A DNA stretch of 61,528 nt from an uncultured Clostridia bacterium (GTDB lineage Bacteria; Bacillota; Clostridia; TANB77; CAG-508). The stretch's first letter is position 1, and every line of letters begins with the position of its first letter. The stretch is from NCBI GenBank assembly GCA_944388705.1, contig CALXJU010000005.1:1-61528 (forward strand), in the 5' to 3' direction. This document shows, piece after piece, positions 3,552-21,853 of the stretch. The position numbers were made by a program, and so were the translations under genes. Below the pieces are notes generated by a model. The model saw only the letters and a list, made by a program, of their open reading frames with translations, ran no database searches and was not told the origin of the DNA.

Positions 3552-3566
3552 AAAAATTTTTAAAAC

Positions 3567-4232: not shown

Positions 4233-4246
4233 ATAAAATTTCCTTT

Positions 4247-5494: not shown

Positions 5495-5671
5495 TTTATC
5501 CTTCTCCTTTTGCTCAGTTTCACTATATTATATGTTCTTTCGAATTACTATTCTATCATATTTATTTTTATTTTTCAAGTTTTTTTAAAATCGTGGTTAT
5601 ATTCTTAATATTTAAACAATATATATTAGTAAAAGTTTGTCTTAACTAGAAAATTCAAGGAGGTAGTATAG

Positions 5672-7150
5672 ATGGAAAATGTAGGCTTATATCAAGATAT
5701 AGCCAAACGAACTGATGGTGATATTTATATTGGAGTTGTCGGTCCTGTAAGAACTGGTAAATCTACTTTTATTAAGAAGTTTATGGATTTACTTGTTATT
5801 CCTAATATAGATAATGAATACAAAAAAGAAAGGGCTAAAGATGAACTTCCACAAAGTGCTGGTGGACGTACAATTATGACAACAGAACCTAAGTTTGTTC
5901 CTAATGAGGCTGTTGAAATTACAATAGATAAAAATTTAAAATTAAAAACACGTTTGGTCGATTGTGTTGGATATTTAGTCGATAATGCAATTGGATACTT
6001 GGAAGATGATATGCCTAGAATGGTTAAAACACCATGGTCAGAAGAAGAAATTCCTTTTGAAACAGCTGCAGAAATTGGAACTAAAAAAGTTATTGAAGAA
6101 CATTCTACGATTGGTATTTTAATCACAACTGATGGTACTGTTACTGATATCCCACGTGAAGACTATATTAAAGCAGAAGAAAGAGTTGTTAGCGAACTTA
6201 GAGCATTAAATAAACCTTTTATTATATTGCTAAATTCAGCTGAGCCATCTTCTCCTGAAACAAAAGTTCTAGCAACACAATTGTCAGAAAAATATAATAC
6301 AAATGTTATGCCTATTAATTGTGAAGAACTTTCAGCAGAAGATATTAATCAGATGTTTTCTAATTTACTTTACGAGTTTCCTGTTGAAGAAATTAAAATT
6401 AGTTTTCCTAAATGGATTGATGGATTAGATTTTACTCATCCATTAAAAGCTAAATTATTTGAACAAATTAAAAATGCTTTTACTAATATTTCAGCATTAA
6501 AAGATGTTTCAAATTGTGTGTCTTTAATTGATAATACTGATATTATTTCTAAAACTTTTGTAAATAATATCATGCTTGGTAATGGAAAAGTTTGTATTAC
6601 TATTAATTTAAAAGATGAACTATTTTATGAAGTTTTATCACAGATGACTGGAATGAATATTACAAATGAAGGTGAATTGTTCTCTATTATGAGTGATTTA
6701 GCAAGTACTAAAAAGAAATATGATAAAATTGCATATGCTCTTGAAGAAGTTAAAACTAAGGGTTATGGTATCGTTACTCCTTCTATTGATGAACTTGTTT
6801 TAGAGGAACCTGAACTAGTTAAACAAGGTTCACGTTTTGGTGTTAAACTTCGTGCAACTGCTCCTTCAATCCACTTAATCCGTGCTAATATTGAAACTGA
6901 AGTTTCTCCTATTGTTGGCTCAGAAAAACAATCTGAAGAACTTGTTAATTATCTTCTTTCTGGTTTTGAGAATGACCCTGCAAGTATTTGGAGTTCAAAT
7001 ATTTTTGGAAAGAGTTTAAATGAATTAGTTAATGAAGGTCTTCAAACTAAACTTGCTAAAATGCCTGAAGAGGCTCAAATGAAACTTCAAGAGACTCTTG
7101 AACGTATTGTTAATGAGGGTAGCGGTGGATTGATTTGTATAATTTTATAA
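5672..7150 (+). CDS. spoIVA: Stage IV sporulation protein A
   Basis: GVVGPVRTGKSTFIKKF, DELPQS..G.TIMTTEPKFVP, C-terminal GSGGLICIIL. Confidence 0.97.
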   Translation: MENVGLYQDIAKRTDGDIYIGVVGPVRTGKSTFIKKFMDLLVIPNIDNEYKKERAKDELPQSAGGRTIMTTEPKFVPNEAVEITIDKNLKLKTRLVDCVGYLVDNAIGYLEDDMPRMVKTPWSEEEIPFETAAEIGTKKVIEEHSTIGILITTDGTVTDIPREDYIKAEERVVSELRALNKPFIILLNSAEPSSPETKVLATQLSEKYNTNVMPINCEELSAEDINQMFSNLLYEFPVEEIKISFPKWIDGLDFTHPLKAKLFEQIKNAFTNISALKDVSNCVSLIDNTDIISKTFVNNIMLGNGKVCITINLKDELFYEVLSQMTGMNITNEGELFSIMSDLASTKKKYDKIAYALEEVKTKGYGIVTPSIDELVLEEPELVKQGSRFGVKLRATAPSIHLIRANIETEVSPIVGSEKQSEELVNYLLSGFENDPASIWSSNIFGKSLNELVNEGLQTKLAKMPEEAQMKLQETLERIVNEGSGGLICIIL

Positions 7151-7214
7151 TTAATAAAGAGGAGTTATAAAACTCCTCTCTTACTATTTTATAGATTTTT
7201 TTAAGGTATCTTTA

Positions 7215-7532
7215 TTATGTTCGTGGCAATTTTCCTGCCAAATCTTTTAAATCATTTTGGGCTTTTTGGTATTCATTATAACATCTCTCTAAATATTTGC
7301 CAAAACATTCTAATTCTTCTTCAACTTTTGCTGATGCTGAATTTGAGTTTGCTTCTTTCAAACCTTCTACTTTATTTATAAATTCATCGTAATCTTTACC
7401 TTGCCAATTTGATGACATATTTTGTGCCACTGTTTGTATTTCTGTATCTTTTCCTCTTTGTGTTTCAAGGCTCGTATTTATTGCATCTTTAGTTGAATTT
7501 AATAAATCTAAATCTATTTTTAAGCTACTCAT
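7215..7532 (-). CDS. WXG100-family protein
   Basis: 105 aa helical protein with central WQG, last gene of the T7SS operon. Confidence 0.75.
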   Translation of the reverse strand: MSSLKIDLDLLNSTKDAINTSLETQRGKDTEIQTVAQNMSSNWQGKDYDEFINKVEGLKEANSNSASAKVEEELECFGKYLERCYNEYQKAQNDLKDLAGKLPRT

Positions 7533-7540
7533 TTTTCACC

Positions 7541-7912
7541 TCATTTAAAAGCATCTGCAAGTGATTTATTTGTTGTTTCTACATCAGTATATCCACCTGC
7601 AACTACTTGTTTTATATAATTTATATAATTATTTATCTGTGTAATTTTGGCATTATGGTCTTCTTTTAATATATTAAATGCATTTACTGCATTCCATGCT
7701 GCTTGTCCTTCCCAAATATAATCCAAATTGTTCATTTGAGTAACTGCATTTTCAAATTCTTCTGTTATTGCTTGTACAATATCAGATATTGCCTGTACAT
7801 CAGATAATACTCCTTCTGTATCTATATATGTTCTATCAGCCAAATCAGAGTTTATTTGCATTATTTCTGGAATAGTTACATCATTTTTTATTTCATTTTC
7901 ATTCTCTTCCAT
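7541..7912 (-). CDS. WXG100-family protein
   Basis: Central WEG and C-terminal YxxxE (YTDVE); paralog of 9591..9896. Confidence 0.75.
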   Translation of the reverse strand: MEENENEIKNDVTIPEIMQINSDLADRTYIDTEGVLSDVQAISDIVQAITEEFENAVTQMNNLDYIWEGQAAWNAVNAFNILKEDHNAKITQINNYINYIKQVVAGGYTDVETTNKSLADAFK

Positions 7913-7921
7913 TATAATCTC

Positions 7922-8233
7922 CTAATTATTCATATATTTTTCTCTGCTTTCATATTTCTCTTTGTTTTCATAATATGCTTCTAGTCTTTTTATAAATTCT
8001 TCTCTTTCTTCATTTTCATATCCTCTAAAAAAGACTGTTTCTATTGCTTCTTCATTTATAAAAAACATACAGTTAGGGCTAATAAAACCTTCTGGATATG
8101 GCACTGCTAAATAATCATATACTTTGTTATTAGCTAAATTTGTTTGTTTAACTCCAATTACCATAACTTTCTTTTTACCGTTTTTTAATATTATTACACT
8201 TCCAATTGGTAATAAATTTTTTACATTTTCCAT
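7922..8233 (-). CDS. DUF4176 family protein (T7SS-associated)
   Basis: LLPIGSVIILKNG.KKVMVIG, YDY.AVPYPEG, VFFRGY motifs. Confidence 0.88.
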   Translation of the reverse strand: MENVKNLLPIGSVIILKNGKKKVMVIGVKQTNLANNKVYDYLAVPYPEGFISPNCMFFINEEAIETVFFRGYENEEREEFIKRLEAYYENKEKYESREKYMNN

Positions 8234-8263
8234 TTTGCTAACATTCCTTTCTTTCAAAATTAC

Positions 8264-9358
8264 TTACTTTGCTAATGCTTCTTCCATAGCTTTATCCCAG
8301 ACAGCAACTCCTCCATCTTGTACAGCATGTTCTATATCTCGACCAGCATCAACTACTGCTCCTACTACATCTCCTTCAGTAACTATTTCTCCAACTACTT
8401 CTAATGAACTTCCTATTGCTCTACCTGTATTCATTATACAATCTCCTGTTGCTTTTATTCCTCCTATGATAAAGTCAGAAACAAATTCTGTAAAATCTTT
8501 TCCTGTTGTATATTCACATACAGCATCTGCAACTATTTTTCCCATTACTACAGCTGCTGCTATTAATGGTGCTGGTGCTACTACTCCTATTATAGCTATA
8601 GAGGCTGCAGTTGCTATTGATACTAATGCTTTATCTATTACTAAATCAACAACAAATTCTCCTACTGTTTCTGCAATTGTTCGTAAATTCCATCCACCAT
8701 TTTCTTTGAAGTTTTCAGCTAAAGTTCCTAATGCTCCAAGTCCTTTTCCAACCCAACCTGCTACTGAATTAAACATATTACCAGCTTTATTAGATATGTT
8801 TTCTACCCATTCATCTAGTCCTAATTGTTGAGCCCATGTTGCAGCTTTATCTCCAACTTTTCCTATACAATATACTAAATCTCCTAACATTGAAACGAAA
8901 TTTCCTGCTAGTCCAAAAAAATCTTCCAATGTTGATTTTCCTGTAATAACTCCTATAACTACACTTACGCCTTCTCCCAAATATCCAAATTCACTGACAA
9001 AATCAGCTACATCATCTAAAGCATCTCTTGCCCAATCAACAGCACTATTCCATGAGTCTACAAAATCGCCAAACCAATCACCATTATATGTTAATGGGTC
9101 AATATCTCTTAATGTTGATTCTACACTATTTATTTTAGAACTCACCTTTTGTAAATAGTCCACATTTTTTTTAAGTCTCCATACAAAATCATTTGGAGAA
9201 CCTTGACTTTGCAATGTCCATGATATACCATTATATCCTTGTTGGTTAGCATAGCTAGTCAAATTGTTATCTAGAGTATTTACTGAATTTATTAAACCTT
9301 GTAATCTTGAAACATAATCATCTATTTTTAAAGTATCAACTTTTATTTCATTAGACAT
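8264..9358 (-). CDS. Putative T7SS substrate/effector
   Basis: N-terminal WXG/LXG-like helical region (EIKVDT..I..Y..RL), then Gly-rich hydrophobic helices; position inside the T7SS operon. Confidence 0.55.
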   Translation of the reverse strand: MSNEIKVDTLKIDDYVSRLQGLINSVNTLDNNLTSYANQQGYNGISWTLQSQGSPNDFVWRLKKNVDYLQKVSSKINSVESTLRDIDPLTYNGDWFGDFVDSWNSAVDWARDALDDVADFVSEFGYLGEGVSVVIGVITGKSTLEDFFGLAGNFVSMLGDLVYCIGKVGDKAATWAQQLGLDEWVENISNKAGNMFNSVAGWVGKGLGALGTLAENFKENGGWNLRTIAETVGEFVVDLVIDKALVSIATAASIAIIGVVAPAPLIAAAVVMGKIVADAVCEYTTGKDFTEFVSDFIIGGIKATGDCIMNTGRAIGSSLEVVGEIVTEGDVVGAVVDAGRDIEHAVQDGGVAVWDKAMEEALAK

Positions 9359-9382
9359 TTTCTTTTTTCCTTCTTTTATTTA

Positions 9383-9574
9383 TTAATAATAATTTGCTAT
9401 TATATTATTTTTTATATTTGTATAACATGTTGAAACAAATTGTAGACTTGCTGTACAATTTTCTTGTCCTAGACCTACTACATTTGTGTTTATTTCTGAA
9501 ATTAAATTATCTAATTCATTGATAATTCTTTGAAGCTCATTTAAATATGTATTTAATGTTACATCGTTTGTCAT
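9383..9574 (-). CDS. Small helical hypothetical protein (possible effector-targeting factor)
   Basis: 63 aa with GGAGG RBS, between WXG100 genes and the effector candidate. Confidence 0.5.
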   Translation of the reverse strand: MTNDVTLNTYLNELQRIINELDNLISEINTNVVGLGQENCTASLQFVSTCYTNIKNNIIANYY

Positions 9575-9590
9575 TTTTGCCTCCTAAATT

Positions 9591-9896
9591 TTATTTAAAT
9601 GCATCTGCAAGTGTTGTATTTGTTGTTTCTGTATCTTCATGTCCTGATACTACAACATTTTTCAAAAATTCTACATATTGGTCTATTAAGTCTTTATAAG
9701 ATTGAAAATATTGGTTTGCAAAAGAATTTACTGCTTCTATTGTAGCAGTTGCTGCATCACCTGTCCATACTTGTTCTAGGTTTTTAATTGTTGTTTGTGC
9801 ATTTGTCAATGTTGTTTGTAAATCATCATTTAATTTTGATATTGAATCAGCTATTGCATTTACTTGAGCTGGGTCAATTTTCATTAAATCTGCCAT
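9591..9896 (-). CDS. WXG100-family protein (EsxA/B-like)
   Basis: 101 aa, central WTG, MKIDP N-terminus. Confidence 0.85.
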   Translation of the reverse strand: MADLMKIDPAQVNAIADSISKLNDDLQTTLTNAQTTIKNLEQVWTGDAATATIEAVNSFANQYFQSYKDLIDQYVEFLKNVVVSGHEDTETTNTTLADAFK

Positions 9897-9911
9897 TTTA
9901 TTTTCCTCCTT

Positions 9912-10211
9912 TTATTGTCCTAATTTTGATACTTGTGAAATATTATCTGTTCTTCTATCATCATAATTTTGTGCTTGTTTTGTTAAAGTTTCTCCATCTG
10001 TTCTTAATTTATCTGCCATTTGTTTTAATTTTGTTGAAATTCCTTTTATTTGTTCTACGAATGCTAAATTGTCATCTCCTACCCAAGCTTCTCCCATTGT
10101 TTCTGCTTGTTGGAATAGATTTTGATAAATCTCTTCAAATGTTGTAGCATATTCTGTTAACTTTGTTCCTGCGTTTTTTAATTGTTGTGGTTCTACTGAT
10201 GTTGCTCCCAT
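9912..10211 (-). CDS. WXG100-family protein (EsxA/B-like)
   Basis: 99 aa, central WVG, C-terminal AQNY. Confidence 0.85.
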   Translation of the reverse strand: MGATSVEPQQLKNAGTKLTEYATTFEEIYQNLFQQAETMGEAWVGDDNLAFVEQIKGISTKLKQMADKLRTDGETLTKQAQNYDDRRTDNISQVSKLGQ

Positions 10212-10246
10212 AAATATTACCCCTTTCTTTGTTAAAATTTACAATA

Positions 10247-10498
10247 TTATGTTATCATAATTTTGCTTCCATTGTCAATATCTGTCTCAAAAACCCTTAA
10301 ATTTTTATTATATTCTTTTCCTGTAGAGAAGTTACAAATTGTAGCTTCTCTATTTTCTCTATACTGACCTTTTGATAAATCACTTATCGCACTAGATAGT
10401 AAAAATCCAACTTCTCCAACTCTACTTTCTGCTGGTATATATGCATCATATTTTAGTCTTGCTGCTGGTACATACACTTCAACTAATATCTTACTCAT
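10247..10498 (-). CDS. YukD/EsaB-like ubiquitin-fold T7SS component
   Basis: About 83 aa, YD..IP and I.NGSKIMI pattern, directly after essC. Confidence 0.7.
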   Translation of the reverse strand: MSKILVEVYVPAARLKYDAYIPAESRVGEVGFLLSSAISDLSKGQYRENREATICNFSTGKEYNKNLRVFETDIDNGSKIMIT

Positions 10499-13400
10499 TA
10501 GACTCATCCTCCTTTGTGTTTAGAATTTTAACAATTTTTGCTTCTCCATTATTTATAGATATAGCAAAATTTTTGTCTGTTATATCTTTTTTGATTTCTC
10601 CTGTGTTGTTAGAAATTCTAAAATTATATTGATTTGAAAATCCTTTTCCAATCCATATTCCGTCATCTGGATTTATATGATTTTTATACCATTTTTTTGC
10701 TGTTAGTATACTTATCTTTTTAAGTTCATCAAATATTATAAAGTTTACATTGTAATTTTTTGAACCTTTTTCTAATGCCAATTCTAATTTTTCTACTCTT
10801 ACATTATCTTTGTTTTCTAATAATGTTCTTATCGAATTTATTATAAATAATTTTTTTTGGAATGTTTCACATTGTGTTCCTGCTGATAATGCATCTTTAT
10901 ATTTATTATTTCTTTCTAATACCAATTGATATATTTCATCTATGAATTCTTCTGCTGATTTTGTTCCTACAACATGTCTTATTTTGCTATTTGTTACTTG
11001 TACTTCATCTGCTTCATCTACTAATGTAGTTTCTACATCTGTATATTCATTTGAGATGAAATTTGATATATCTTGTAAGAATTGCAAATAACTCTTATCT
11101 TCTGATAATATCATATTTATATAATGTTTTTCTGCATTTAAATAATGTATTTGTAATGTGTTTTTCTCCATTCCAATTGGTATATTTAAATTATTTTTTA
11201 CATATGGTTTTAAAATTTCTGGTGTTATTTTTCTTGGTAATACTGCAATTTTATTTGCTTCAAAACCACTATATTTATCTGTTAATTCTTTGCATTGTTC
11301 TCTTATAAATTTATATGGTGTACTTTCTGGAACAATTTTTGCAGTTTGGAATTCATAAATATTTTTATTTATTTTTACTAATCCTCTTCCTTCATAATGG
11401 CTAGGTACTAATCCACCAGTTTTTCCTAGAACCATTGTATAGTTTGATTCATCATTAAATTGTAATACAAGGCTTTGTCCGAAATTTTGTGATGTTCTAT
11501 ATTTCATAGCATTTGTAGAATTTAATGTTGCTACAAAATATATTCCATATTTGCTTCCTTCTCTTGTCAAATAATTTATTGCATCTTCTTTTTCTGGATA
11601 TGTTTCAGCAAATGCTGCATAATTATTAATTACTATTATTATATTTGGTACTTTTTCTTCACTTTCTTCTATATATGTTAAATATGAACCACCATATTCT
11701 GCAAATTTTCTTTTTCTTGTTTCTAATTCTTTATATAGTGTTTTAAATAAATTCGTTATTTTTTCTGCATCGTATGCTAACATTACATCTCCAATATGTG
11801 GTGCTTTTGCAAATGCATTTAATGTTCCTGATTCAAAATCTAATAAGTATAAATTAACTTCTCTTGGTGTGTGTTTATTTATTATTGAATATATCATTGT
11901 TGTTATTAACATTAATTTTCCACTACCTTGTGAACCATAAACCAATAGATTTCCTTGTTGTGTTATTGGTATTCTTAAATAACTTTGAGATTGATTTACT
12001 GGGTCATCATATTCTCCAATTACAGGTTTTATATCATATTGACTATCAAATATATTGTATTTTTCTTCTATTTCATTTAATAATATATTTTCACTAATTG
12101 GTGGTAACCATATTGGTTTTACTGATATATGTTCTTCTTCTGCAATTGAACTTATATGCATTGTTATTGCATCTAATTGCTTTTTAGGTGTGATTATATT
12201 TCCTTTATTTTTATTTAATTTTACTTGTTTTAATACTCTAGCATTGTTATCTATTATTGAAACACTATTATCTCTTTCTTCTACATATTTATCTACTGGA
12301 TAATATGGTGCTCCTGCCCATGCTGATTGTCCTAATTCAAATAATTCATTATAACCTACTTGCAAATAAAATCTTCCTGTTTCTTTTAGCATTGCCGCAT
12401 CAGGTCTTTTTAGCATGTCCATACTATCTGCTTTTTCTTGTACTTTTAAACATATTCTGAATTTTGAGTTACTCCAAATTTGGTCATCTACTACTCCATT
12501 TGGTTTTTGTGTTGCTAATATTAAATGTACACCTAAACTTCTTCCTATTCTCGCTGCACTTACTAATTCTGACATAAATTCTGGTCTTTGACTTTTTAAT
12601 TCTGCAAACTCGTCTGATATAATAAATAAATGTGGTAATGGTTCATCTACTTCATGTTCTCTATATAATTTTTGATATTTATATATATCTATATTGCTTG
12701 TACCTGTTTTTTTACTTGTTTGGTCAAATATCCTTTGTCTTCTTTTTAATTCACTATTTATTGATACTATTGCTCTATTTATTGATGCTCCATCTAAGTT
12801 TGTTATTATTCCTGCTACATGTGGAAGTTTTTCAAATGATTTTGCCATTCCTCCACCTTTATAATCTATTAGTATAAATGTTACTTCATCTGGGTGGTAG
12901 TTTACTGCAAGTGATAATATATATGTCATTATAAATTCTGATTTTCCGCTTCCTGTCATTCCTGCAACTAATCCATGTGGTCCATGGAATTTTTCATGTA
13001 AGTCTAATTTGAATAATTCTCCATATGTATCTACTCCTATTGGTGTTGCTAAACTTTTTGTTGGGTCATTATTTTTCCATCTGTTTAATATGTTTAAATG
13101 TTCTATTTTTCCAACTTGAAACATTTGTAAGAAGCTTATTAATGTTGGTAATTCATATCCATTTTCTAATGTGTCTAATAGTGTATTTGCTAATTTTATA
13201 CTTAATTTTTTAGGGTCTGCTGTTAAATATATATCAGGCTTAAATGTTAGGTTGTTTCCAGTTATGTCATTTCTTTCATACATTTTTGCTTCTTCTTGTA
13301 TTTCTATTACTGTTGTACATTCTTTTGGAAGTTCTTGCAATTCTTCAACAAAATTTATTACACTTATATTTAGATTTTCTTTTTCATTATATATCTGATT

Positions 13401-15068
13401 AATCATTTCTGATTTTAATGCTAGTTCTTTATCTAATGCAAATATTATGTAATAAGGCAACATATTTTCTTTTTTCTTATTGTTTGCTTGTATTCTTGTT
13501 GTTATTTCTCCATCTAAATAATATGATATTTCTTTTGCTTCATCAGCATTTGTTGCTATAAATCTAAAACTTTTATCATTTGTAAATGTGTGTGGTAACC
13601 ATTTTACAAATTCAAATTCATCTTTGTCTTTTTCATTATATAAAAATATCATTTTTACTTCATCATAACTGTATAATGCTGCCAATTGGAATATTAGTCC
13701 TTTTGCAAATTCTTTTACTTTTTTGCAATCTCCTATTACCCCTGAAATATAGTCATCATACAATGATACTGTTATTGGAACATTTTCTAGTATTTTAGGC
13801 TTTTCACAAAATTCATACATTTTATCTTGTAAATTGTCTTCTTTTAAAGAAAATCTTTTTTCAGGATATGATATTTCTGCATCTAATGGTTTATTTCCTA
13901 TTCCTATTCTTAATTTCAGGAAGTCATTTTGTCCTATTTCTCTTTCCCATAATGTTCTTTTTGTTTTTAGTATTCTATCTTCACATTCATCAATTGTAAC
14001 AAAATTTTCTTTTAGAATTTGTCTTTGTTTTTCTTGTTCTTTTTCAATTTCTTGTTCTACATCTCCTAGATATTTTATGTATTTTTCTTGTCTATATTTT
14101 TCTTGTTTTTTTCTTGCTCCTTTTTCATATACTTTTGTTACCATTGGCCACAATAATGTTCCTAATAACATACTTCCTGACATTACTATTGATGGCATAT
14201 ATGATTGTATATTTCCACTTGTTATTGCATTACTTATTGTAAATCCTGTTGTTGTCATTGAAGCTAATCCCATTGTTACTGATGGTCCTATTGTTAATGC
14301 TGCTGGCATTTTTTCTCCTGTTTCTCTTTCTGGTGGATTGTCTATTTTGAATTTTGCTTCTTCTATATCTCTTTTAAATCTTGGTGACCTATAAAAGTAT
14401 TCTCTTTGCATTTCTTCAATTTCTTCAATTTCTTCATCTTCTTCATTATTATCAAATGGATTAAATTTATCTTCAGGCGTTTCTTGAAAAACGCCTTCTT
14501 TTATTGTTACTTTTCCATCTGGATTATTTATCATAATAAAGTCATAAAATACGATTATTTTTAATCCCATTATATATATTACATCACCAAAGTCTAAGTC
14601 TTTTGCTTTTTCTTTTTTACCATTTATAAATATTCCATTTGTGCTATTATTATCTTTTATTAACCAATATTTATTGTGATATGCAAGTTTTGCATGTACT
14701 GAAGATACAAAATCATTTTTGAAACATATTGCATTTTCTTCACTTCTTCCTATTGATATTCCTATATCTTTTTCTATTACTTTTTTTGTATATATTTGTC
14801 TATCTTCTGTCAATGGTTCTGTGAATATTAGTCCTATTGTTTCTCCTTTTTGTATTTTGATTATTGTGTTTTCTTTTAATTCTATTGTTTTTTCTTTGTG
14901 TTCTAGTATTTTTACTTTTTTACTAGATTTTAGTTCCCATTTTTCGTTACTTCCTTCTATACTTATTATTTCTTTTTCTTCATCTGTTCCTAACCAAAAT
15001 TGTCCTTCTTTTTTGTTCGGAAGTGTAATAGTGTTTAATTTTTCTTTGTATATTAATGTTACTATCAT
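10491..15068 (-). CDS. essC: Type VII secretion ATPase EssC (FHA + 2 TM + FtsK/SpoIIIE domains)
   Basis: FHA domain, YRSPR, two TM helices, HGPHGLVAGMTGSGKSE, DEFAELK, second Walker A GSQGSGK, degenerate third ATPase domain. Confidence 0.95.
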   Translation of the reverse strand: MIVTLIYKEKLNTITLPNKKEGQFWLGTDEEKEIISIEGSNEKWELKSSKKVKILEHKEKTIELKENTIIKIQKGETIGLIFTEPLTEDRQIYTKKVIEKDIGISIGRSEENAICFKNDFVSSVHAKLAYHNKYWLIKDNNSTNGIFINGKKEKAKDLDFGDVIYIMGLKIIVFYDFIMINNPDGKVTIKEGVFQETPEDKFNPFDNNEEDEEIEEIEEMQREYFYRSPRFKRDIEEAKFKIDNPPERETGEKMPAALTIGPSVTMGLASMTTTGFTISNAITSGNIQSYMPSIVMSGSMLLGTLLWPMVTKVYEKGARKKQEKYRQEKYIKYLGDVEQEIEKEQEKQRQILKENFVTIDECEDRILKTKRTLWEREIGQNDFLKLRIGIGNKPLDAEISYPEKRFSLKEDNLQDKMYEFCEKPKILENVPITVSLYDDYISGVIGDCKKVKEFAKGLIFQLAALYSYDEVKMIFLYNEKDKDEFEFVKWLPHTFTNDKSFRFIATNADEAKEISYYLDGEITTRIQANNKKKENMLPYYIIFALDKELALKSEMINQIYNEKENLNISVINFVEELQELPKECTTVIEIQEEAKMYERNDITGNNLTFKPDIYLTADPKKLSIKLANTLLDTLENGYELPTLISFLQMFQVGKIEHLNILNRWKNNDPTKSLATPIGVDTYGELFKLDLHEKFHGPHGLVAGMTGSGKSEFIMTYILSLAVNYHPDEVTFILIDYKGGGMAKSFEKLPHVAGIITNLDGASINRAIVSINSELKRRQRIFDQTSKKTGTSNIDIYKYQKLYREHEVDEPLPHLFIISDEFAELKSQRPEFMSELVSAARIGRSLGVHLILATQKPNGVVDDQIWSNSKFRICLKVQEKADSMDMLKRPDAAMLKETGRFYLQVGYNELFELGQSAWAGAPYYPVDKYVEERDNSVSIIDNNARVLKQVKLNKNKGNIITPKKQLDAITMHISSIAEEEHISVKPIWLPPISENILLNEIEEKYNIFDSQYDIKPVIGEYDDPVNQSQSYLRIPITQQGNLLVYGSQGSGKLMLITTMIYSIINKHTPREVNLYLLDFESGTLNAFAKAPHIGDVMLAYDAEKITNLFKTLYKELETRKRKFAEYGGSYLTYIEESEEKVPNIIIVINNYAAFAETYPEKEDAINYLTREGSKYGIYFVATLNSTNAMKYRTSQNFGQSLVLQFNDESNYTMVLGKTGGLVPSHYEGRGLVKINKNIYEFQTAKIVPESTPYKFIREQCKELTDKYSGFEANKIAVLPRKITPEILKPYVKNNLNIPIGMEKNTLQIHYLNAEKHYINMILSEDKSYLQFLQDISNFISNEYTDVETTLVDEADEVQVTNSKIRHVVGTKSAEEFIDEIYQLVLERNNKYKDALSAGTQCETFQKKLFIINSIRTLLENKDNVRVEKLELALEKGSKNYNVNFIIFDELKKISILTAKKWYKNHINPDDGIWIGKGFSNQYNFRISNNTGEIKKDITDKNFAISINNGEAKIVKILNTKEDESNE

Positions 15069-15094
15069 TTTTTCCTCCTACTATATTTCTTGGT

Positions 15095-17650
15095 TTATTT
15101 AGCTTTATATCTATAAAGTGTTCTTGTTCTTACTTCTGTTGAATCATTTGATGTTGCTACTGTATCACTATATGCAGTCCAATCTGACCATTTGTAGTAA
15201 TAGTATGTCGAACTAAGTATTTCTTTAACTGAATATGTATAAAGTATTGAAGTACCTGTATATCCCCATGCATCAAGTCCGCACTCTGAACATATATTTC
15301 CTATTGCATATAGAGTTTCTGAAGAAACAGTATTAACATTTGCTAATTTTGTACTCTTTTCAGCAATTGAAGCTGCACTTTGTATTTGGGTTTGTGCCCC
15401 TTCTGGAAAATCTGGATATGTACCTGATGCATACCAAACTCCATTATATAAAGCACATCTATGTTGATATCCATACATAGTTTTTTTACTCTTTATTGTA
15501 AATTCTTCTTTATCTGTATTTTCATAAATTGAATCATAAGAAAATTTGCCATAACTCTTACCATACACCCTTTTCACATCATATTGAGTCCAACCATCTA
15601 AAGAACTATTTGCTGATGTTGTAGTTTGTTTTGTTCTATAACTATATTGCGTTTTAGTTTCTATGTTGTAATTATTTGCTGTGACTCCACTTGGTAAACT
15701 TTCTACCCATCCTGACCATTCTTTATTTTGAATTACATTATTATTGGTTTGTTGGTTATTTTGATTGTTATCCTCCTGTTCTTGAACTTCTACTCCTAAA
15801 CTAACTAGTACTTCTATAGTCATCCCTAAATTAACTTCTTGACCTTCTGGTGTCATTTGACTTATTATTATATCTTTTTCTACATCATTACTATATTGCC
15901 CTGTTGCATTTATTGGTAACCCCATTGCTGTTAATTGTTGTATTGCATCATTTATATTCATTCCTACTACATTTGGTACTATTACTTTTTGTTTTGATAC
16001 TGCTACTTTTATTGTTACTGTTGTTCCTTTTGCTACTTCTTGATTTTCTTGTATTGATTGTTCTAATACTTTTCCTATTTGTGTTTCATCTTCTACTTCT
16101 TCATATTCATATTGTATTTCTAATTCTAATTCATCTATTTTTTGTGTTGCTTCTTCACTTGTCAATCCTACAACTTGAATCATTCTTACATTTTCTATTA
16201 CTGGTACTTGTTCTTCTTCTTTTTTGAATTTTGGAATAAATATAATTCCCAATACTATTAAAATTACTAGTAATGCTAGAATTATTTTATATCTATTATT
16301 TTTTATCTTTATCCATATTGGACTTTTGATTTTCTCTTCTTTTTTTGGTCTTTCTTTTATTTTTACATTTTGTTTTTCTTCTTTGATATCTTCTTGTACG
16401 ACTTCTTCTTTTATTTTATTTTTTTCTATTTCATTATTATCTACTTTATCTTGTTGCACTTCTTTTTCAGCAATTGGTTCATCCTCATTCTCTACAACTT
16501 CATTTATTGGTTGTTTTTCAATAACCTCTTCATCTTGATGAACATCATTTATTTCATTAATACCCATTCCCACTGTCATATCTAATTGGTCTTTTGGTTG
16601 TTCACTTTCAAAAACACTTAATGTACCATTATGGCTATCTGATTTTGTATTTTCTATAAATAATTTATTCATCTTTTTTTCATTAAAATCAAATAGTATT
16701 TTAGGTTTATCTATTTGGTCATATACTTTTTGTAAATCTGTTTTCAATTCTGTTGCACTCGAATATCTGTCTTTTGGATAATAATTACATGCTTTTAATA
16801 TTATTTCTGCTATCTCCCTTATTGCATTTTGCGGTGCCGGCATTTTTTCTCCTGATATCCTTTTATATAGTGCTTCTTCTCTAGCTTCCATTGTTATTTC
16901 TTCAGGATAATTTGGCAAAAATGGCAATCTGTTATAATTAAAATATCTATATAGCATTATTCCTAATGAATATGTGTCAACTGTTCTATTTCCTTTTTCA
17001 TTTTTATATAGCTCTGGTGCCATATAATTTTCTGTTCCTTTTTTAGACATATTTGATATTGTTTTATCTATATGTTTTGCTATACCAAAATCCCCTACTT
17101 TGTAAATTCCTTTTTTATTTACAAATATGTTGTCAGGTTTTATATCTCTATGTACTACATTGTTTTCTTCACAATCTTCTAATGCTGTTGCTACATCTAT
17201 TGCCATTTTTATTGCTTCTTTATCTGTAATGTTATTTTCTAAAATATAGGCATCTAAATTTTTTAGTAACTCCATTTTTATGTTTATTATAAAGCCAATT
17301 TCATTTTTCTTTGGAATAATTTCATAATCTTCTATACTTACAATATTTTCACTATCTTTAAATATAGACATGAATTTGATTTCTTCTACCCATTTTTGTA
17401 CAGATTTCTCATAATATCTTGTAATATCATTTTGTGTCATTCCTTCTGTTTTAAGTGTTTGTATTTCTGATTTGGTTTGTGGAATTTCGATTTGTTTTAT
17501 TGCTGAATATGTTGCTATTCCAAATTCTTCTTTTTTGACTTTATATACTTTTCCATATGAACCTTCGCCTATTAGTTCTTCTTCTTTCCATGTTTCTTTA
17601 AAAAATGTTTTCTTTTCTTGAATTTGTTTTTTCTTTTTTATTCCTAACAT
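15095..17650 (-). CDS. Hanks-type Ser/Thr kinase with TM, two PASTA domains and variable C-terminal extracellular domain
   Basis: IGEGSYGKVY, AIK, HRDIKPDN, DFG, YMAPE; TM helix; PASTA repeats (VPNVVGM). Confidence 0.93.
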   Translation of the reverse strand: MLGIKKKKQIQEKKTFFKETWKEEELIGEGSYGKVYKVKKEEFGIATYSAIKQIEIPQTKSEIQTLKTEGMTQNDITRYYEKSVQKWVEEIKFMSIFKDSENIVSIEDYEIIPKKNEIGFIINIKMELLKNLDAYILENNITDKEAIKMAIDVATALEDCEENNVVHRDIKPDNIFVNKKGIYKVGDFGIAKHIDKTISNMSKKGTENYMAPELYKNEKGNRTVDTYSLGIMLYRYFNYNRLPFLPNYPEEITMEAREEALYKRISGEKMPAPQNAIREIAEIILKACNYYPKDRYSSATELKTDLQKVYDQIDKPKILFDFNEKKMNKLFIENTKSDSHNGTLSVFESEQPKDQLDMTVGMGINEINDVHQDEEVIEKQPINEVVENEDEPIAEKEVQQDKVDNNEIEKNKIKEEVVQEDIKEEKQNVKIKERPKKEEKIKSPIWIKIKNNRYKIILALLVILIVLGIIFIPKFKKEEEQVPVIENVRMIQVVGLTSEEATQKIDELELEIQYEYEEVEDETQIGKVLEQSIQENQEVAKGTTVTIKVAVSKQKVIVPNVVGMNINDAIQQLTAMGLPINATGQYSNDVEKDIIISQMTPEGQEVNLGMTIEVLVSLGVEVQEQEDNNQNNQQTNNNVIQNKEWSGWVESLPSGVTANNYNIETKTQYSYRTKQTTTSANSSLDGWTQYDVKRVYGKSYGKFSYDSIYENTDKEEFTIKSKKTMYGYQHRCALYNGVWYASGTYPDFPEGAQTQIQSAASIAEKSTKLANVNTVSSETLYAIGNICSECGLDAWGYTGTSILYTYSVKEILSSTYYYYKWSDWTAYSDTVATSNDSTEVRTRTLYRYKAK

Positions 17651-17670
17651 CTTTTATCCCTTCTCACCAT

Positions 17671-20247
17671 TTACTTTGCTTGATATCTATACAATGTCCT
17701 AGTTTCTTCCTCGCCATTACTTCTAGTATCCAACCAATCTGTATATTTATAATAATTATATATTATAGTTTTATTTCTTGTCTGATATTTATAACTTCCT
17801 GTTGTAGATGAACTCTGCACGTACCATGAACTTAAAATACATTGGCTACATTTACTTCCATTTTTCAATCCTTTTATAGTTGAATCATTTGAAAATTCTT
17901 CTGTTGTTGTTAATGTATGTCTTTCTTTTAATAAAACTGTAACAGAAGAATTATTATCATCTAAATTTACAGTCTTATCTGATGCTACTCCTTCATATAC
18001 AACTCCAGTTGAATTATTTTTGGTTTTTGTATGCCAATGATAATATACATATGTTGTTACTGCATCAGAAGATGTTATTCTTAAAGTATCTGATTCATTT
18101 GGTTTAGTTTTGCTTGATTTTATAGAACTCCAATCTGAATATGAAACTGTATTTACTCCATTTTGTATCCAACCATTTAAACTATTACTTGTAGAAGTTG
18201 TATATGTTTTATATCTATATTGAGTTTTTGTTTCTATATTATAATTATTTGCTGTAACTCCACTTGGTAAACTTTCTACCCATCCTGACCATTCCTTATT
18301 TTGACTATCACTATTATTACTTGGACTATTAGTTTGTTGAGTATTTTGATTATTATTATTTGTTGTTTGGTCATCATTATTTGTATTATTATTATTATTG
18401 TTATCTTGTCCTTGAAGTTCTGCTCCTAAACTAACTAACACTTCTATAGTCATTCCTAAGTTAACTTCTTGACCTTCTGGTATCATCTGACTTATTATTA
18501 TATCTTTTTCTACATCATTACTATATTGCCCTGTTGCATTTATTGGTAATCCCATCGATGTTAATTGTTGTATTGCATCATTTATATTCATTCCTACTAC
18601 ATTTGGTACTACTACTTTTTGTTTTGATACTGCTACTTTTATTGTTACTGTTGTTCCTTTTGCTACTTCTTGATTTTCTTGTATTGATTGTTCTAATACT
18701 TTTCCTATTTGTGTTTCATCTTCTACTTCTTCATATTCATATTGTATTTCTAATTCTAATTCATCTATTTTTTGTGTTGCTTCTTCACTTGTCAATCCTA
18801 CAACTTGAATCATTCTTACATTTTCTATTACTGGTACTTGTTCTTCTTCTTTTTTGAATTTTGGAATAAATATAATTCCCAATACTATTAAAATTACTAG
18901 TAATGCTAGAATTATTTTATATCTATTATTTTTTATCTTTATCCATATTGGACTTTTGATTTTCTCTTCTTTTTTTGGTCTTTCTTGTTCTTCTACTGGT
19001 TCTTCTTGCACTTCTTCAGTAGGAATTTCATTTTGTTCTTTTTCCTCGATGTCTGTCTCTTGATTTACAGATTGTTCTTCTTTCACATTTTCTGTAATTT
19101 CTTCCACAGGTTGTTCAGGTATTTGTTCTACATTTATTTGTTCATTTACAATTTCATTAACTCCAATACCAACTGTCATTTCTAATTTATCTTTTGCTGT
19201 TTCATCTTCAAAAACACTTAAAGTTCCATTATGACTATCTGATTTTGTATTTTCTATAAATAATTTATTCATCTGTTTTTCATTAAAATCAAATAATGTT
19301 TTGGGCTTATCTATTTGGTCATATACTTTTTGTAAATCTGTTTTCAATTCTGTTGCACTTGAATATCTATCTTTTGGATAATAACTACATGCTTTTAATA
19401 TTATTTCTGCAATCTCTCTTGGTGCATTTTGTGGTGCCGGCATTTTTTCTCCTGATATTCTTTTATATAGTGCTTCTTCTCTTGAATCTATAGTTATTTT
19501 TTCTGGATAATTTGGTAAAAATGGTAATCTGTTATAATTAAAATATCTGTATAACATTATTCCCAATGAATATATATCAACTGTTCTATTTCCTTTTTCA
19601 TTTTTATATAGTTCTGGCGCCATATAATTTTCTGTTCCTTTTTTAGACATATTTGAAACAGTTTTTTCTATATGTTTTGCTATACCAAAATCCCCTACTT
19701 TGTAAATTCCTTTTTTATTTACAAATATGTTGTCAGGTTTTATATCTCTATGTACTACATTGTTTTCTTCACAATCTTCTAATGCTGTTGCTACATCTAT
19801 TGCCATTTTTAGAATTTCTTTATCTGTAATGTTATTTTCTAAAATATATGCATCTAAGTTTTTTAGTAATTCCATTCTTATATTTATTATCCAGCCAATT
19901 TCATTTTTCTTTTTGTTGATTTCATAATCTTCTATTGTTACAATATTTTCACTGTCTTTAAATATAGACATGAATTTAATTTCTTCTACCCATTTTTGAA
20001 CAGTATTTTCATAATAACTAGTTATATCATTTTGTGTCATTCCTTCTGTTTTTAATGTCTGAATTTCTGCTTTTGTTTGTGGTATTTCTATTTGTTTTAT
20101 TGCTGAATATGTTGCTATTCCAAACTCTTCTTTTTTCGCTTTATATACTTTTCCGTATGAGCCTTCACCTATTAATTCTTCTTCTTTCCATTGCTCATTA
20201 AAAAATGTTTTTACCTCTTGTTCTTTTTTGCGTTTTTTTCCAAACAT
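17671..20247 (-). CDS. Paralogous Ser/Thr kinase with TM, PASTA domains and a different C-terminal tip
   Basis: Same catalytic motifs; tandem paralog of 15095..17650. Confidence 0.93.
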   Translation of the reverse strand: MFGKKRKKEQEVKTFFNEQWKEEELIGEGSYGKVYKAKKEEFGIATYSAIKQIEIPQTKAEIQTLKTEGMTQNDITSYYENTVQKWVEEIKFMSIFKDSENIVTIEDYEINKKKNEIGWIINIRMELLKNLDAYILENNITDKEILKMAIDVATALEDCEENNVVHRDIKPDNIFVNKKGIYKVGDFGIAKHIEKTVSNMSKKGTENYMAPELYKNEKGNRTVDIYSLGIMLYRYFNYNRLPFLPNYPEKITIDSREEALYKRISGEKMPAPQNAPREIAEIILKACSYYPKDRYSSATELKTDLQKVYDQIDKPKTLFDFNEKQMNKLFIENTKSDSHNGTLSVFEDETAKDKLEMTVGIGVNEIVNEQINVEQIPEQPVEEITENVKEEQSVNQETDIEEKEQNEIPTEEVQEEPVEEQERPKKEEKIKSPIWIKIKNNRYKIILALLVILIVLGIIFIPKFKKEEEQVPVIENVRMIQVVGLTSEEATQKIDELELEIQYEYEEVEDETQIGKVLEQSIQENQEVAKGTTVTIKVAVSKQKVVVPNVVGMNINDAIQQLTSMGLPINATGQYSNDVEKDIIISQMIPEGQEVNLGMTIEVLVSLGAELQGQDNNNNNNTNNDDQTTNNNNQNTQQTNSPSNNSDSQNKEWSGWVESLPSGVTANNYNIETKTQYRYKTYTTSTSNSLNGWIQNGVNTVSYSDWSSIKSSKTKPNESDTLRITSSDAVTTYVYYHWHTKTKNNSTGVVYEGVASDKTVNLDDNNSSVTVLLKERHTLTTTEEFSNDSTIKGLKNGSKCSQCILSSWYVQSSSTTGSYKYQTRNKTIIYNYYKYTDWLDTRSNGEEETRTLYRYQAK

Positions 20248-20259
20248 CTTTCTTCCCCC

Positions 20260-21330
20260 TTATTTTGGAAATACTTTTATTGTTTTATTGTATAATATTT
20301 GTCCATCTTTATCTTTTATTGTAATTGTACTTGTTCCTTCTTTTTTGGCTATTATTTTTCCATCATTATATTCAATATTATCATTATTTATTTCTATTTC
20401 TGCCTTGCCTTCATATTCAAATTCATAACTTTGTCCAACTATTACAGAACCTGGATATTCATCTTTTATAATTTTAAATTCATTTCCTTTCATCATCATT
20501 GAAAATATTATAATAGCTACTATTAAAACAACTATTATAGGTATTATTTTTTTATAATTTTTACCTTTGTTTTTTTGTATTTCTAATACTATTACTGTTA
20601 TATTGTCTGTTCCGCCTCTTTCTAGTGCAATTCTTATTAATTCTTCTACTATTTCTTTTACTTCTCTTTTTTGTGATAATATTACTTCTATTTCTCTATC
20701 TTCTAACATATCTGTTAGACCATCACTACATATTAATATTTTTTCATATTCATCATATTCTATTTTATTTATATATGGTTTTAATATCATTTCATCTTTT
20801 CTTATTCCTAAATGTTGTGTTAGTCTTGCTTTATGTCCTGTATTTATTTGTAATCTTTCTTGCATTTTTGCTTCTGTATGGTCTTCTGATATTTGTTCTA
20901 ATGTTTTTCCTTTTAAACCATATATTCTACTATCTCCAATATTACAAACACTAATTTTGTCTTTTAAAAATTGAGTTGCTGCTATTGTAGTTCCCATTCT
21001 AGCATTACCACTCATTTCTTCACATATTTTTCTATTTGCTTCTTCTATATATTCTCTCCATCTGAATTCTCTATTAACATTTTTTTGTATATATTCTTTT
21101 AATGTTGATGTTGCTAAATATGACGCTCTTTCTCCTCTTACTTCTCCACCCATTCCATCAAAAACCGCACATATTATGTTATCTATGTTTTCAAATTGCA
21201 TAGTTAATGTTTTACTATTTCCTTCATTTTCTTCTTTTAATGTTTTAAAATTAAAATAATAATTATCTTCATTATTTTTTCTTACTTTTCCTATTACTGA
21301 CTTACATGCACCATTTATTATATAACTCAT
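20260..21330 (-). CDS. PP2C/PrpC-type Ser/Thr phosphatase with C-terminal TM and Ig-like domain
   Basis: RKNNED, VFDGMGG, NIGDSR, CSDGL, DNIT motifs; AGGAG RBS before MSYII (21330). Confidence 0.92.
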   Translation of the reverse strand: MSYIINGACKSVIGKVRKNNEDNYYFNFKTLKEENEGNSKTLTMQFENIDNIICAVFDGMGGEVRGERASYLATSTLKEYIQKNVNREFRWREYIEEANRKICEEMSGNARMGTTIAATQFLKDKISVCNIGDSRIYGLKGKTLEQISEDHTEAKMQERLQINTGHKARLTQHLGIRKDEMILKPYINKIEYDEYEKILICSDGLTDMLEDREIEVILSQKREVKEIVEELIRIALERGGTDNITVIVLEIQKNKGKNYKKIIPIIVVLIVAIIIFSMMMKGNEFKIIKDEYPGSVIVGQSYEFEYEGKAEIEINNDNIEYNDGKIIAKKEGTSTITIKDKDGQILYNKTIKVFPK

Positions 21331-21470
21331 TTTTTTCTCCTTTTCTTCAGTATTAGTTATATCACAAATTACTTTTTTATACAATGTTTTTTGTTGTTTT
21401 TTTATGTCTTTTTTTGACATTCAAAAAGCGATGTATTTATAATTTACATCGCCTATTTATATCCTATTTT

Positions 21471-21731
21471 TTAACAACAACAATTTTTCTTTTTATCACT
21501 TTTCTTACAACATATTAAAGCTACTATAGCTATTATTAATAAAATTAATAGTGTAATTATTAGAGTTATTGTAGCACCTATTCCTAATAAAGCTATAAGT
21601 CCAAATATTGTTCCAAAAAATACTCCAACAAAAAATGATAATAATACAGATATTATTGCTATTATTATCCATAAACATGAACAATCTTTTTTTCTGTCTT
21701 TTTTACAATATATTTCTACTTGTGGTTCCAT
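21471..21731 (-). CDS. Small Cys-rich membrane protein
   Basis: Two hydrophobic helices, GGAGG RBS. Confidence 0.55.
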   Translation of the reverse strand: MEPQVEIYCKKDRKKDCSCLWIIIAIISVLLSFFVGVFFGTIFGLIALLGIGATITLIITLLILLIIAIVALICCKKSDKKKNCCC

Positions 21732-21853
21732 AATCTTTAGCACCTCCAGTACTAATATATATTATGTTTTTATTTGACTGTTTGTGCATTTTTTTATTGT
21801 AAAATCTAATTAATTGTAGTATAATAATTGAAAATGTAAATTATGGAGGAATT

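Follow-up and report, generated by a model that had tools for sequence, protein, structure and literature searches.

How is a type VII secretion system (T7SS) assembled and activated in bacteria other than mycobacteria, staphylococci, and Bacillus? This question is served by a locus of an uncultured Clostridia bacterium (assembly GCA_944388705.1), in which the gene of an EssC-type secretion ATPase is preceded by the genes of a phosphatase and two receptor kinases. The window analyzed here is the whole stretch of 61,528 nucleotides (nt) of contig CALXJU010000005.1, and its source genome comprises 1.60 Mb in 65 contigs with an estimated completeness of 95.8%. A preliminary description saw in the locus a new T7SS subtype lacking EsaA, EssA, and EssB, in which membrane kinases occupy the EssB position and switch secretion by threonine phosphorylation. 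The present analysis suggests that the locus is probably a self-contained, reduced T7SS of a T7SSe-like lineage with a proposed phospho-switch.

The window is AT-rich (GC content 0.21-0.30), and twelve minus-strand open reading frames (ORFs) at 21420..7215 are tightly packed with intergenic gaps of -17 to +35 nt. They are listed here in the order of transcription, together with some of their domains (aa, amino acid residues; values after family names are E-values unless given in bits).

20260..21420, minus strand: PP2C/PPM phosphatase, 386 aa, TseF-like (PF13672, 1.9e-12; PF00481, 6.5e-11)
17671..20247, minus strand: receptor Ser/Thr kinase 1, 858 aa (Pkinase, 1.6e-39; PASTA, 9.7e-22)
15095..17650, minus strand: receptor Ser/Thr kinase 2, 851 aa, tandem paralog (Pkinase, 1.2e-37; PASTA, 5.2e-22)
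17674-18330 and 15098-15700, minus strand: C-terminal all-beta domains of about 200 aa of the two kinases (no Pfam family)
10491..15068, minus strand: EssC/TsxC ATPase, 1525 aa (TIGR03928, 1095 bits against a cut-off of 778; FtsK_SpoIIIE PF01580, 2.9e-57)
14571..14759, minus strand: second FHA domain of EssC, residues 104-166 (PF00498, 1.3e-13)
10247..10507, minus strand: YukD/EsaB-like protein TsxB, 86 aa, overlapping the essC stop by 17 nt (no Pfam match itself)
9912..10211, minus strand: WXG100 protein A1, 99 aa (PF06013, 5.5e-10, 39.8 bits; TIGR03930, 1.8e-11; WVG at 43)
9591..9896, minus strand: WXG100 protein A2, 101 aa (PF06013, 3.4e-8, 34.1 bits; NF035934, 9.6e-16; WTG at 44)
9383..9574, minus strand: 63-aa helical protein, candidate cargo partner (no Pfam match; homolog at the same position in locus L030, 2e-18)
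8264..9358, minus strand: 364-aa candidate T7SS substrate (no Pfam or NCBIfam match)
7922..8257, minus strand: DUF4176 protein, 111 aa, candidate cargo chaperone (PF13780, 2.8e-27)
7541..7912, minus strand: WXG100-like protein, 123 aa, candidate Lap-type partner (PF06013, 4.8e-4, below gathering; WEG at 67)
7215..7532, minus strand: WXG100-like protein, 105 aa, candidate Lap-type partner, last gene of the operon (PF06013, 6e-4, below gathering; WQG at 43)

The co-oriented order of phosphatase, two kinases, EssC, YukD-like protein, WXG100 proteins, and cargo genes with short gaps is as it had been described, and only 12-26 nt separate PP2C, kinase 1, kinase 2, and essC from one another. Four proteins had been called WXG100; the first pair exceeds the PF06013 gathering score of 27.3 bits, while the last pair stays below it, yet both of its members have a W-x-G motif. 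An EssC-type FtsK/SpoIIIE ATPase and co-encoded WXG100 proteins, by which a T7SS is generally recognized, are thus present in the window. The T7SS genes are all single-copy in the genome and restricted to this operon.

Can this EssC read phosphothreonine (pThr)? The ATPase has a Walker A motif, GMTGSGKS703, and its second FHA domain (FHA2) keeps the pThr-binding residues G107-R108, S122 and H125, and T143-N144-G145, including every one of the G-R, SxxH, and N-G residues noticed before (G107, R108, S122, H125, N144, and G145). PF00498 matches only once in the whole genome, in EssC (5.3e-15). An AlphaFold2 model of EssC residues 1-225 (predicted local distance difference test score, pLDDT, 91.7; predicted template-modeling score, pTM, 0.80) has two beta-sandwich domains. 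Foldseek ranked T7SSb structures first for this model, namely the B. subtilis core unit 9qks_H (8.3e-7), EssC 5fwh (template-modeling score 0.60/0.71), and 1wv3, and the pThr-binding FHA domains of Rv1747, GarA, EmbR, FhaA, and OdhI followed in lower rows. Among PDB sequences, the best match of FHA2 is the Rv1747 FHA domain (1.9e-5), and no T7SSb FHA domain was matched at E ≤0.01. The EssC N-terminus appears to have the tandem-FHA architecture of T7SSb, with a predicted canonical pThr pocket in the second FHA domain.

Are the kinases and the phosphatase active, and are they separate from the housekeeping pair? Kinase 1 consists of a kinase domain, an acidic linker, a transmembrane (TM) segment at residues 443-461, two PASTA domains, an N-rich linker, and the all-beta domain. 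The PP2C protein has a catalytic domain (residues about 40-285), a TM helix (292-310), and an extracytoplasmic tail of about 75 aa. The G-loop, AIK, HRD, DFG, and APE motifs are intact in both kinases, and RKNNED47 (RxxNED), DGMGG88, GDSR162, SDG232, and DNIT272 are intact in PP2C. The operon kinases score 217.7 and 208.8 bits with the Stk1/PrkC-type model NF033483 and fall short of its cut-off of 450, and PP2C scores 160.6 bits (4.2e-47) with the Stp1-type model NF033484, below the cut-off of 230. A true NF033483 equivalog (605 bits) was found on contig C8 at 4310-5971, beside a housekeeping Stp at 3560-4267 (271 bits, over the NF033484 cut-off). Since these two over-cut-off genes sit together on C8, the operon kinases and PP2C are extra copies, and it was ruled out that the operon PP2C and kinases are themselves the housekeeping pair. 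Thus, the membrane kinases are catalytically intact by their motifs, as had been claimed, and separate from the C8 pair.

Which components of known systems are missing? The reported lack of EsaA, EssA, and EssB was upheld by a hidden Markov model search of the genome, in which no such model exceeded its cut-off. The best scores were 9.8 bits (E 0.2) for EssB (TIGR03926), 16.4 bits against 122 for EsaA (TIGR03929), and 15.8 bits against 32.45 for EssA (TIGR03927); YukC (PF10140) had no match and the EccB model nothing over its cut-off. As for controls, one of 14 control genomes scored over the cut-off in each search with the EssB, EsaA, EssA, YukC, and EccB models, DUF6382 being the exception. 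The TseJ-type DUF6382 model (PF19909) had no match in the window genome, and tblastn with Neobacillus vireti TseJ found the FHA region of EssC alone (7e-4). Nothing was found in the genome by tblastn with the 1558-aa Ig-like TseI and the 147-aa TseH-like protein of N. vireti, which are fast-diverging, so that a remote homolog could escape. The flanks within the window have no ORF of more than 1000 aa besides EssC.

Is the linkage of signaling genes to essC conserved? Among 120 listed homologs, the nearest EssC proteins are 62-76% identical and come from metagenome assemblies; the next, about 55% identical among the matches listed, belong to Neobacillus, Oceanobacillus, Sutcliffiella, Lysinibacillus, and Lachnospiraceae. 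PF00498 is present in all of these nearest homologs. I performed a synteny survey of 80 loci and four congener loci, in which ORFs were called and searched with the window proteins and the genes were clustered. For a FastTree phylogeny, 85 EssC sequences with a length of 1400 aa or more were used; L033 (EssC at a contig end, outside the chosen gene set) and L100 (EssC split in two ORFs) were dropped. The tree was made without reference TsjC, TsfC, and TsbC and without the accessions of PMC11217815, and neither the 80 loci nor the 120 listed homologs include a named C. acetobutylicum or C. felsineum locus.

The tree splits into clade A (34 sequences from 32 loci) and clade B (51 sequences), with a support of 100 each. 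Clade A comprises the four congeners (L017-L020; genomes G012, G017, G013, and G018) and 28 loci, including L073-L106, of Bacilli and Erysipelotrichaceae metagenome-assembled genomes (MAGs). Its loci have essC and a yukD-like gene, sometimes with small ORFs; FHA2 is degenerate, and a kinase, PP2C, or FHA protein was found in the flanks of none of the 32 loci. The clade-B flanks (50 loci besides the window) have a kinase in 33, PP2C in 26, a DUF6382-FHA protein in 25, an Ig-like giant protein in 4, and an unannotated protein of about 774 aa in 15, and kinases may also sit past the examined flanks. Linkage of a kinase or PP2C to essC, with various kinase types, occurs in 35 of these 50 loci. The FHA motif was scored at seven positions (G107, R108, S122, H125, S142, N144, and G145). 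It is complete in 42 of the 51 clade-B EssC sequences, while R108 and N144 occur together in none of the 34 clade-A sequences.

The closest comparison is provided by L030, whose EssC is the sister of the window EssC (support 100). Both lie in a subclade of 14 tips (support 100) that includes N. rhizosphaerae; a support of only 44 makes the grouping with L063 and L072 a weak one. In the genome of L030 (G041), one contig has PP2C (64% identity over 358 aa, the C-terminal tail included) and then a kinase (86%) running off the contig end, and another contig has a kinase C-terminus, essC (72%), yukD, two WXG100 genes, the 63-aa and 364-aa genes, DUF4176, and two WXG-like genes. The G041 contigs break inside the kinase genes, and the flanking genes differ from those of the window. 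The kinase-PP2C-essC linkage, whose conservation had been left to such a survey, recurs in 35 of the 50 related loci, with the full architecture in G041. Four Neobacillus loci have the gene order C-B-A-A2-J(DUF6382-FHA)-F(PP2C)-D(kinase-TPR)-147 aa-I(Ig-like), which agrees with the T7SSe component list given by Garrett et al. (PMC11217815).

As a separate observation, the family of about 774 aa has no Pfam match, follows the WXG100 pair in the 15 T7SSe-like loci (e.g., L054:16089-18413), and may represent an accessory component not described before. The window lacks it.

How could such an operon work? The conserved core would be EssC, with two FHA domains, a membrane anchor, and FtsK-type ATPase domains, together with the YukD-like protein and the WXG100 pair. 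A cargo module would lie downstream, consisting of the 364-aa effector candidate with its 63-aa partner, DUF4176, and two WXG-like partners, and a dedicated signaling module of two tandem PASTA receptor kinases and a membrane PP2C would lie upstream. The extracellular PASTA and variable beta domains would sense a cell-envelope cue, upon which the kinases would phosphorylate themselves or a partner on threonine. As the sole pThr reader of the genome, FHA2 of EssC would then dock on the pThr and lead to the assembly or activation of the EssC motor, and PP2C would reset the switch. I infer the phosphorylation, its target, its signal, and the role of the kinases as stand-ins for EssB as the membrane partner of EssC. 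This plausible interpretation is strengthened by the extra kinase and PP2C copies, the single FHA-bearing gene of the genome, and the T7SSb-like tandem-FHA fold. A more far-reaching version is tentative and rather unlikely to hold in full: the PASTA kinases and PP2C would be the only membrane partners of EssC in a minimal T7SS, replacing both the EssB-type scaffold and TseJ, and cues from peptidoglycan or elsewhere in the envelope, sensed by PASTA and the two differing beta domains, would directly fire a membrane-active toxin via FHA2 docking on kinase pThr.

Where might FHA2 dock? Juxtamembrane threonines are found at residues 340-361 of kinase 1 (19150-19230, minus strand) in the contexts G-T342-L-S-V and M-T358-V-G-I. 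Both contexts are kept in the two paralogs and that of T342 also in G041, and similar T-x-x-[VI] motifs are present in other T7SS-linked kinases. T342 and T358 are candidate docking sites and leads only, as the linker aligns poorly and the pattern is too simple. A complex prediction of EssC 1-225 with kinase 1 residues 1-375 scored 0.00 against a mark of 0.32, which speaks neither for nor against binding.

Several results weigh against a phospho-switched, self-contained T7SS of this lineage. EssC was found in 4 of 24 sampled congeners (37-40% identity) and in 23 of 300 sampled genomes of the family (best 45% identity); the system itself is missing from close congeners and members of the family, so that the lineage can do without it. 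The kinase mostly lies downstream of essC in the related loci, so that its position is not conserved and the earlier placement of the kinases in an EssB position is not supported. The kinases of T7SSe-type loci are only distantly related to those of the window (phmmer 1e-8 to 1e-14), which indicates that the kinase was exchanged during evolution. The association between the FHA motif and kinases amounts to one deep split rather than many independent contrasts. Within clade B, no link is seen between the motif and signaling genes in the flanks (kinase, PP2C, or TseJ-like): the full motif was found in 31 loci with and 10 without such a gene, and a partial motif in 8 with and 1 without. As TseI, TseH, TseJ, EssB, EsaA, and EssA are lacking, no envelope-spanning partner is evident, and a missing component may lie outside the assembly in view of its completeness and its 65 contigs. 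In addition, no immunity gene for the 364-aa effector candidate is evident.

Does EssC itself read the signal of the kinases, or is the control indirect? The kinases might act through transcription or by phosphorylating substrates, YukD, or other proteins, while the EssC FHA reads a phosphoprotein other than the kinases or is a phospho-independent scaffold. I consider this unlikely on balance. There are precedents: IreK activates the T7SSb of Enterococcus faecalis transcriptionally and T7SSb FHA domains work without pThr binding, as reported in PMC10765036, and Esr1 of Schaalia acts on transcription via an FHA protein, as reported in PMC13622651. Moreover, the separate DUF6382-FHA adaptor in half of the related loci (25 of 50) suggests that the relay does not always run directly from kinase to EssC. 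However, the window operon has no transcription factor, its genome has no detectable TseJ-like adaptor, and the retention of the FHA2 pThr residues across clade B (42 of 51) argues for phospho-reading by EssC itself.

A second alternative sees in the locus the decaying or no longer functional remains of a more complete T7SSe that has lost TseH, TseI, TseJ, and TseK, and with them secretion. TseJ, TseK, TseH, and TseI were not found, there being no model or reference sequence for TseK, and the sporadic occurrence of any EssC in the family (23 of 300 genomes) would fit such decay. Nevertheless, this is improbable. All twelve ORFs are intact with preserved catalytic motifs, G041 retains the reduced architecture with proteins that are 64-86% identical, and further metagenome assemblies encode the EssC proteins of 62-76% identity. 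The Ig-like TseI lies in the flanks of only 4 of the 50 related loci, so that many relatives are likewise without TseI nearby. It is very improbable that the kinases and phosphatase adjoin the T7SS by chance and serve only cell-wall or sporulation signaling, even though envelope sensing is a general role of PASTA kinases, the locus lies beside spoIVA, and genome G043 has about 50 paralogs of this kinase type mostly outside T7SS loci, because a canonical Stp/PASTA-kinase pair is encoded elsewhere in the genome, the signaling genes and essC are closely joined, the linkage recurs in another genomic context in G041 and, involving other types of kinase, among 35 of 50 clade members, and the sole genomic FHA match resides in EssC.

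Returning to the reduced, T7SSe-like system, how firm are its smaller components? Homologs of the 86-aa protein lie after essC in 70 loci, and 14 of 24 aligned family members match YukD (PF08817; best 2.9e-7), although a profile of the family found nothing below E 0.14 among PDB sequences. The 63-aa protein has weak relatives beside cargo genes in 7 further loci. The 364-aa protein is helical at its N-terminus, and its hydrophobic C-terminal part is rich in Gly, Ala, and Val, with two hydrophobic segments at 239-277. Its nearest Atlas clusters (0.95-0.90) are Bacillota hypothetical proteins, some with WXG100/EspC, glycine-zipper, or LXG annotations, which are leads only, and its homologs are paired with DUF4176 in L030, L050, and L069. 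A DUF4176 protein was reported to stabilize an LXG toxin (PMC12482557), and small WXG100-related partners were described beside candidate substrates at all new T7SS loci (PMC11217815). The 123-aa WXG100-like protein is 35% identical to WXG100 A2, and the 105-aa protein has a homolog in L030 (2e-17). The cargo module may be read as a membrane-active substrate with its export partners.

Other cargo was seen in the survey. Mbeg1-like alpha/beta-hydrolase proteins of about 513 aa adjoin small WXG-like genes in 21 loci (e.g., L063:13054-14595) and resemble the "reverse lipase" substrates of Garrett et al. (PMC11217815).

What do the two kinases sense? They are 71% identical overall, with near-identical kinase domains and diverged last 190 or so residues. 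The stretch from the TM segment to the first PASTA domain (15700-16300 and 18330-18930, minus strand) is identical at the protein level, while the linker and the C-terminal domain differ, and DNA repeats of 300 nt in the kinase genes are 90-93% identical. This pattern fits gene conversion, or may reflect an effect of MAG assembly. An AlphaFold2 model of kinase 1 residues 470-858 (pLDDT 85.3) has two PASTA domains followed by a confident all-beta domain, and the PASTA fold was borne out by comparison with the structures of S. aureus PrkC and M. tuberculosis PknB (3py9, Z 12.9; Foldseek 3.4e-8).

In the all-beta domain, conserved W-S-x-W..L-P and Y-R-Y motifs bracket a variable middle. It has 143 representative relatives at E ≤1e-3, nine of which were scanned with Pfam: the domain is joined to kinase and PASTA parts in four of them and to PASTA alone in one, which is maybe a fragment, while the remaining four are surface proteins in which M23 peptidase, Flg_new, C-type lectin, or leucine-rich repeat parts occur. 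With the composite ectodomain as the query, Foldseek gave for the beta domain only jelly-roll and lectin rows at a probability of ≤0.14, and a wide VIA-align search gave Z ≤3.9 with PASTA domains dominating the list. Since these searches used the composite ectodomain rather than the domain alone, it is unwarranted to state that the domain has no known fold. The best ESM Atlas score of the C-terminal domain was 0.78, which is no usable lead.

The 8.8-Mb Clostridiales MAG G043, which is the genome of L072, has about 50 matches to this kinase type with 35-50% kinase-domain identity. Many are in tandem arrays (e.g., L111, L115, and L119), with open frames of about 300 to 1330 aa, which points to a receptor-kinase family that has expanded and whose ectodomains vary.

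How is the operon delimited? It is bordered by the convergent spoIVA (5672..7150, plus strand) and the divergent tsaB (21854..22534, plus strand), and three further features lie at its ends.

7156..7181, both strands: terminator-like hairpin between the operon end and spoIVA (consensus scan, pattern match only)
21840-21813, minus strand: promoter-like site (pattern match only)
21471..21743, minus strand: 90-aa Cys-rich membrane ORF 5' of PP2C with one strong hydrophobic segment (sub-threshold Pfam matches only)

The 90-aa ORF has several cysteines and a K-rich C-terminal tail ending in C-C-C and belongs to no family. No homolog was found 5' of PP2C in the sister locus of G041, and it is doubtful that this ORF is part of the system, although it is a possible stand-in for TseK. 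The UDPGP-spoIVA synteny is retained in all four congeners examined, and within 4-8 kb past spoIVA these congeners have neither T7SS genes nor the tsaB-side genes of the window. Thus, synteny breaks at the operon, where a search for an insertion scar identified neither repeats nor mobile-element genes.

A few kilobases off the operon, a 407-aa BspA-type leucine-rich repeat protein is encoded at 26922-28145 on the minus strand (PF13306, 1.3e-8). BspA-type repeats are also found in one surface protein (P0147) that shares the kinase C-terminal domain.

What does this locus add? Garrett, Higginson, and Palmer (2024, Microlife uqae013; PMC11217815) described the subtypes T7SSc-j. By their account, conserved active sites and an EssB-like topology characterize the membrane kinases TscD, TsdD, and TseD, PPM phosphatases belong to these variants, and TsdC, TseC, and TsjC carry conserved pThr motifs. 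They explicitly proposed phospho-regulation of T7SSc/d/e/j, drawing an analogy with the T6SS (type VI secretion system). The idea of a phospho-switched T7SS was therefore already published in 2024, the window locus repeats that hypothesis, and the suggestion of a newly recognized subtype had to be withdrawn. Particular to the locus are the reduced set (no TseH, TseI, or TseJ found), the tandem kinases with PASTA plus a beta domain, and the membrane-anchored PP2C. Since specialists would expect the principle, its value is that of a tractable, reduced example. It is among the smallest versions, with seven candidate core genes, a single pThr reader within the motor, and no separate adaptor, which makes it a convenient construct for testing pThr-FHA gating of EssC. 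No experimental follow-up of the T7SSc-j subtypes in Bacillota was found by subtype name.

How does the locus compare with known systems? The closest is T7SSe, of which a Neobacillus strain was named as a carrier (PMC11217815). Counterparts of TseA and TseA2, TseB, and a pThr motif in the FHA of TseC are found in the window, which also encodes the two activities of the membrane kinase TseD and the PPM phosphatase TseF. Further likenesses are the lack of T7SSa and T7SSb accessory proteins, the position of the window EssC in the same fully supported clade as the four Neobacillus loci, and the same proposed control by threonine phosphorylation. In contrast, TseJ (DUF6382 plus FHA) and TseK are stated to be at all T7SSe loci, with TseH and TseI shared with T7SSd (PMC11217815), while no TseJ, Ig-like TseI, or TseH-like match was found in the window genome. 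The window kinase is a tandem duplicate with a distant kinase domain and an ectodomain of two PASTA domains plus a beta domain, not helical/TPR; its PP2C has a TM helix, while TseF is described as cytoplasmic (PMC11217815); and the signaling genes are upstream of essC, not downstream.

The locus resembles T7SSb of S. aureus and B. subtilis in its EssC, which scores over the TIGR03928 cut-off and has the tandem-FHA structure. Both also encode WXG100 proteins and a protein of the YukD type, and their cargo is LXG-style, accompanied by DUF4176 and small helical partners. The window kinases share the EssB topology, with a cytoplasmic kinase fold, one TM segment, and an extracellular C-terminus, and it is the pseudokinase EssB that binds the tandem-FHA region of EssC in T7SSb (PMC10765036). 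However, EssB, EsaA, and EssA were not found in the genome, the window kinases are catalytically intact without a sequence match to EssB models, and FHA2 has retained phosphate-binding residues that are missing from the EssC of T7SSb (PMC10765036, PMC11217815).

In Actinomycetales, an experimental precedent for the proposed relay is the Esr (epibiont sensing and response)-Esx system, which runs from a kinase/phosphatase pair through an FHA protein to Esx (bioRxiv 2026; PMC13622651). Phosphorylation of the FHA protein was reported there, post-translational activation of secretion was proposed, and some EsrG FHA proteins are fused to EccC. The surface sensor, the kinase/phosphatase pair, and the FHA output tied to Esx/T7SS are common to both. 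Esr-Esx differs in its phylum, in its MoxR, vWA, and beta-propeller sensing parts, which are absent from the window, and in its usually separate FHA protein, and the window sensors are PASTA kinases.

In Pseudomonas aeruginosa, threonine phosphorylation controls the T6SS through PpkA, PppA, and Fha1. An Agrobacterium T6SS case of threonine phosphorylation is cited in PMC11217815. The T6SS offers an analogy only, with a Hanks-type membrane kinase, a PP2C, and an FHA reader gating secretion post-translationally; the machine is unrelated, and its FHA protein serves as a separate scaffold outside the motor ATPase.

The last comparison is with IreK, a PASTA Ser/Thr kinase that ties envelope damage to T7SS activity in E. 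faecalis. The word PASTA is absent from the main text of PMC11217815, and a full-text search joining PASTA with T7SS terms gave only papers mentioning IreK or pseudokinases. IreK is a housekeeping kinase, encoded elsewhere and acting via transcription (PMC10765036), while the window kinases are dedicated and sit in the operon beside a pThr-competent EssC. The locus links a PASTA sensor in cis to a T7SS, a link so far known only in trans in Enterococcus.

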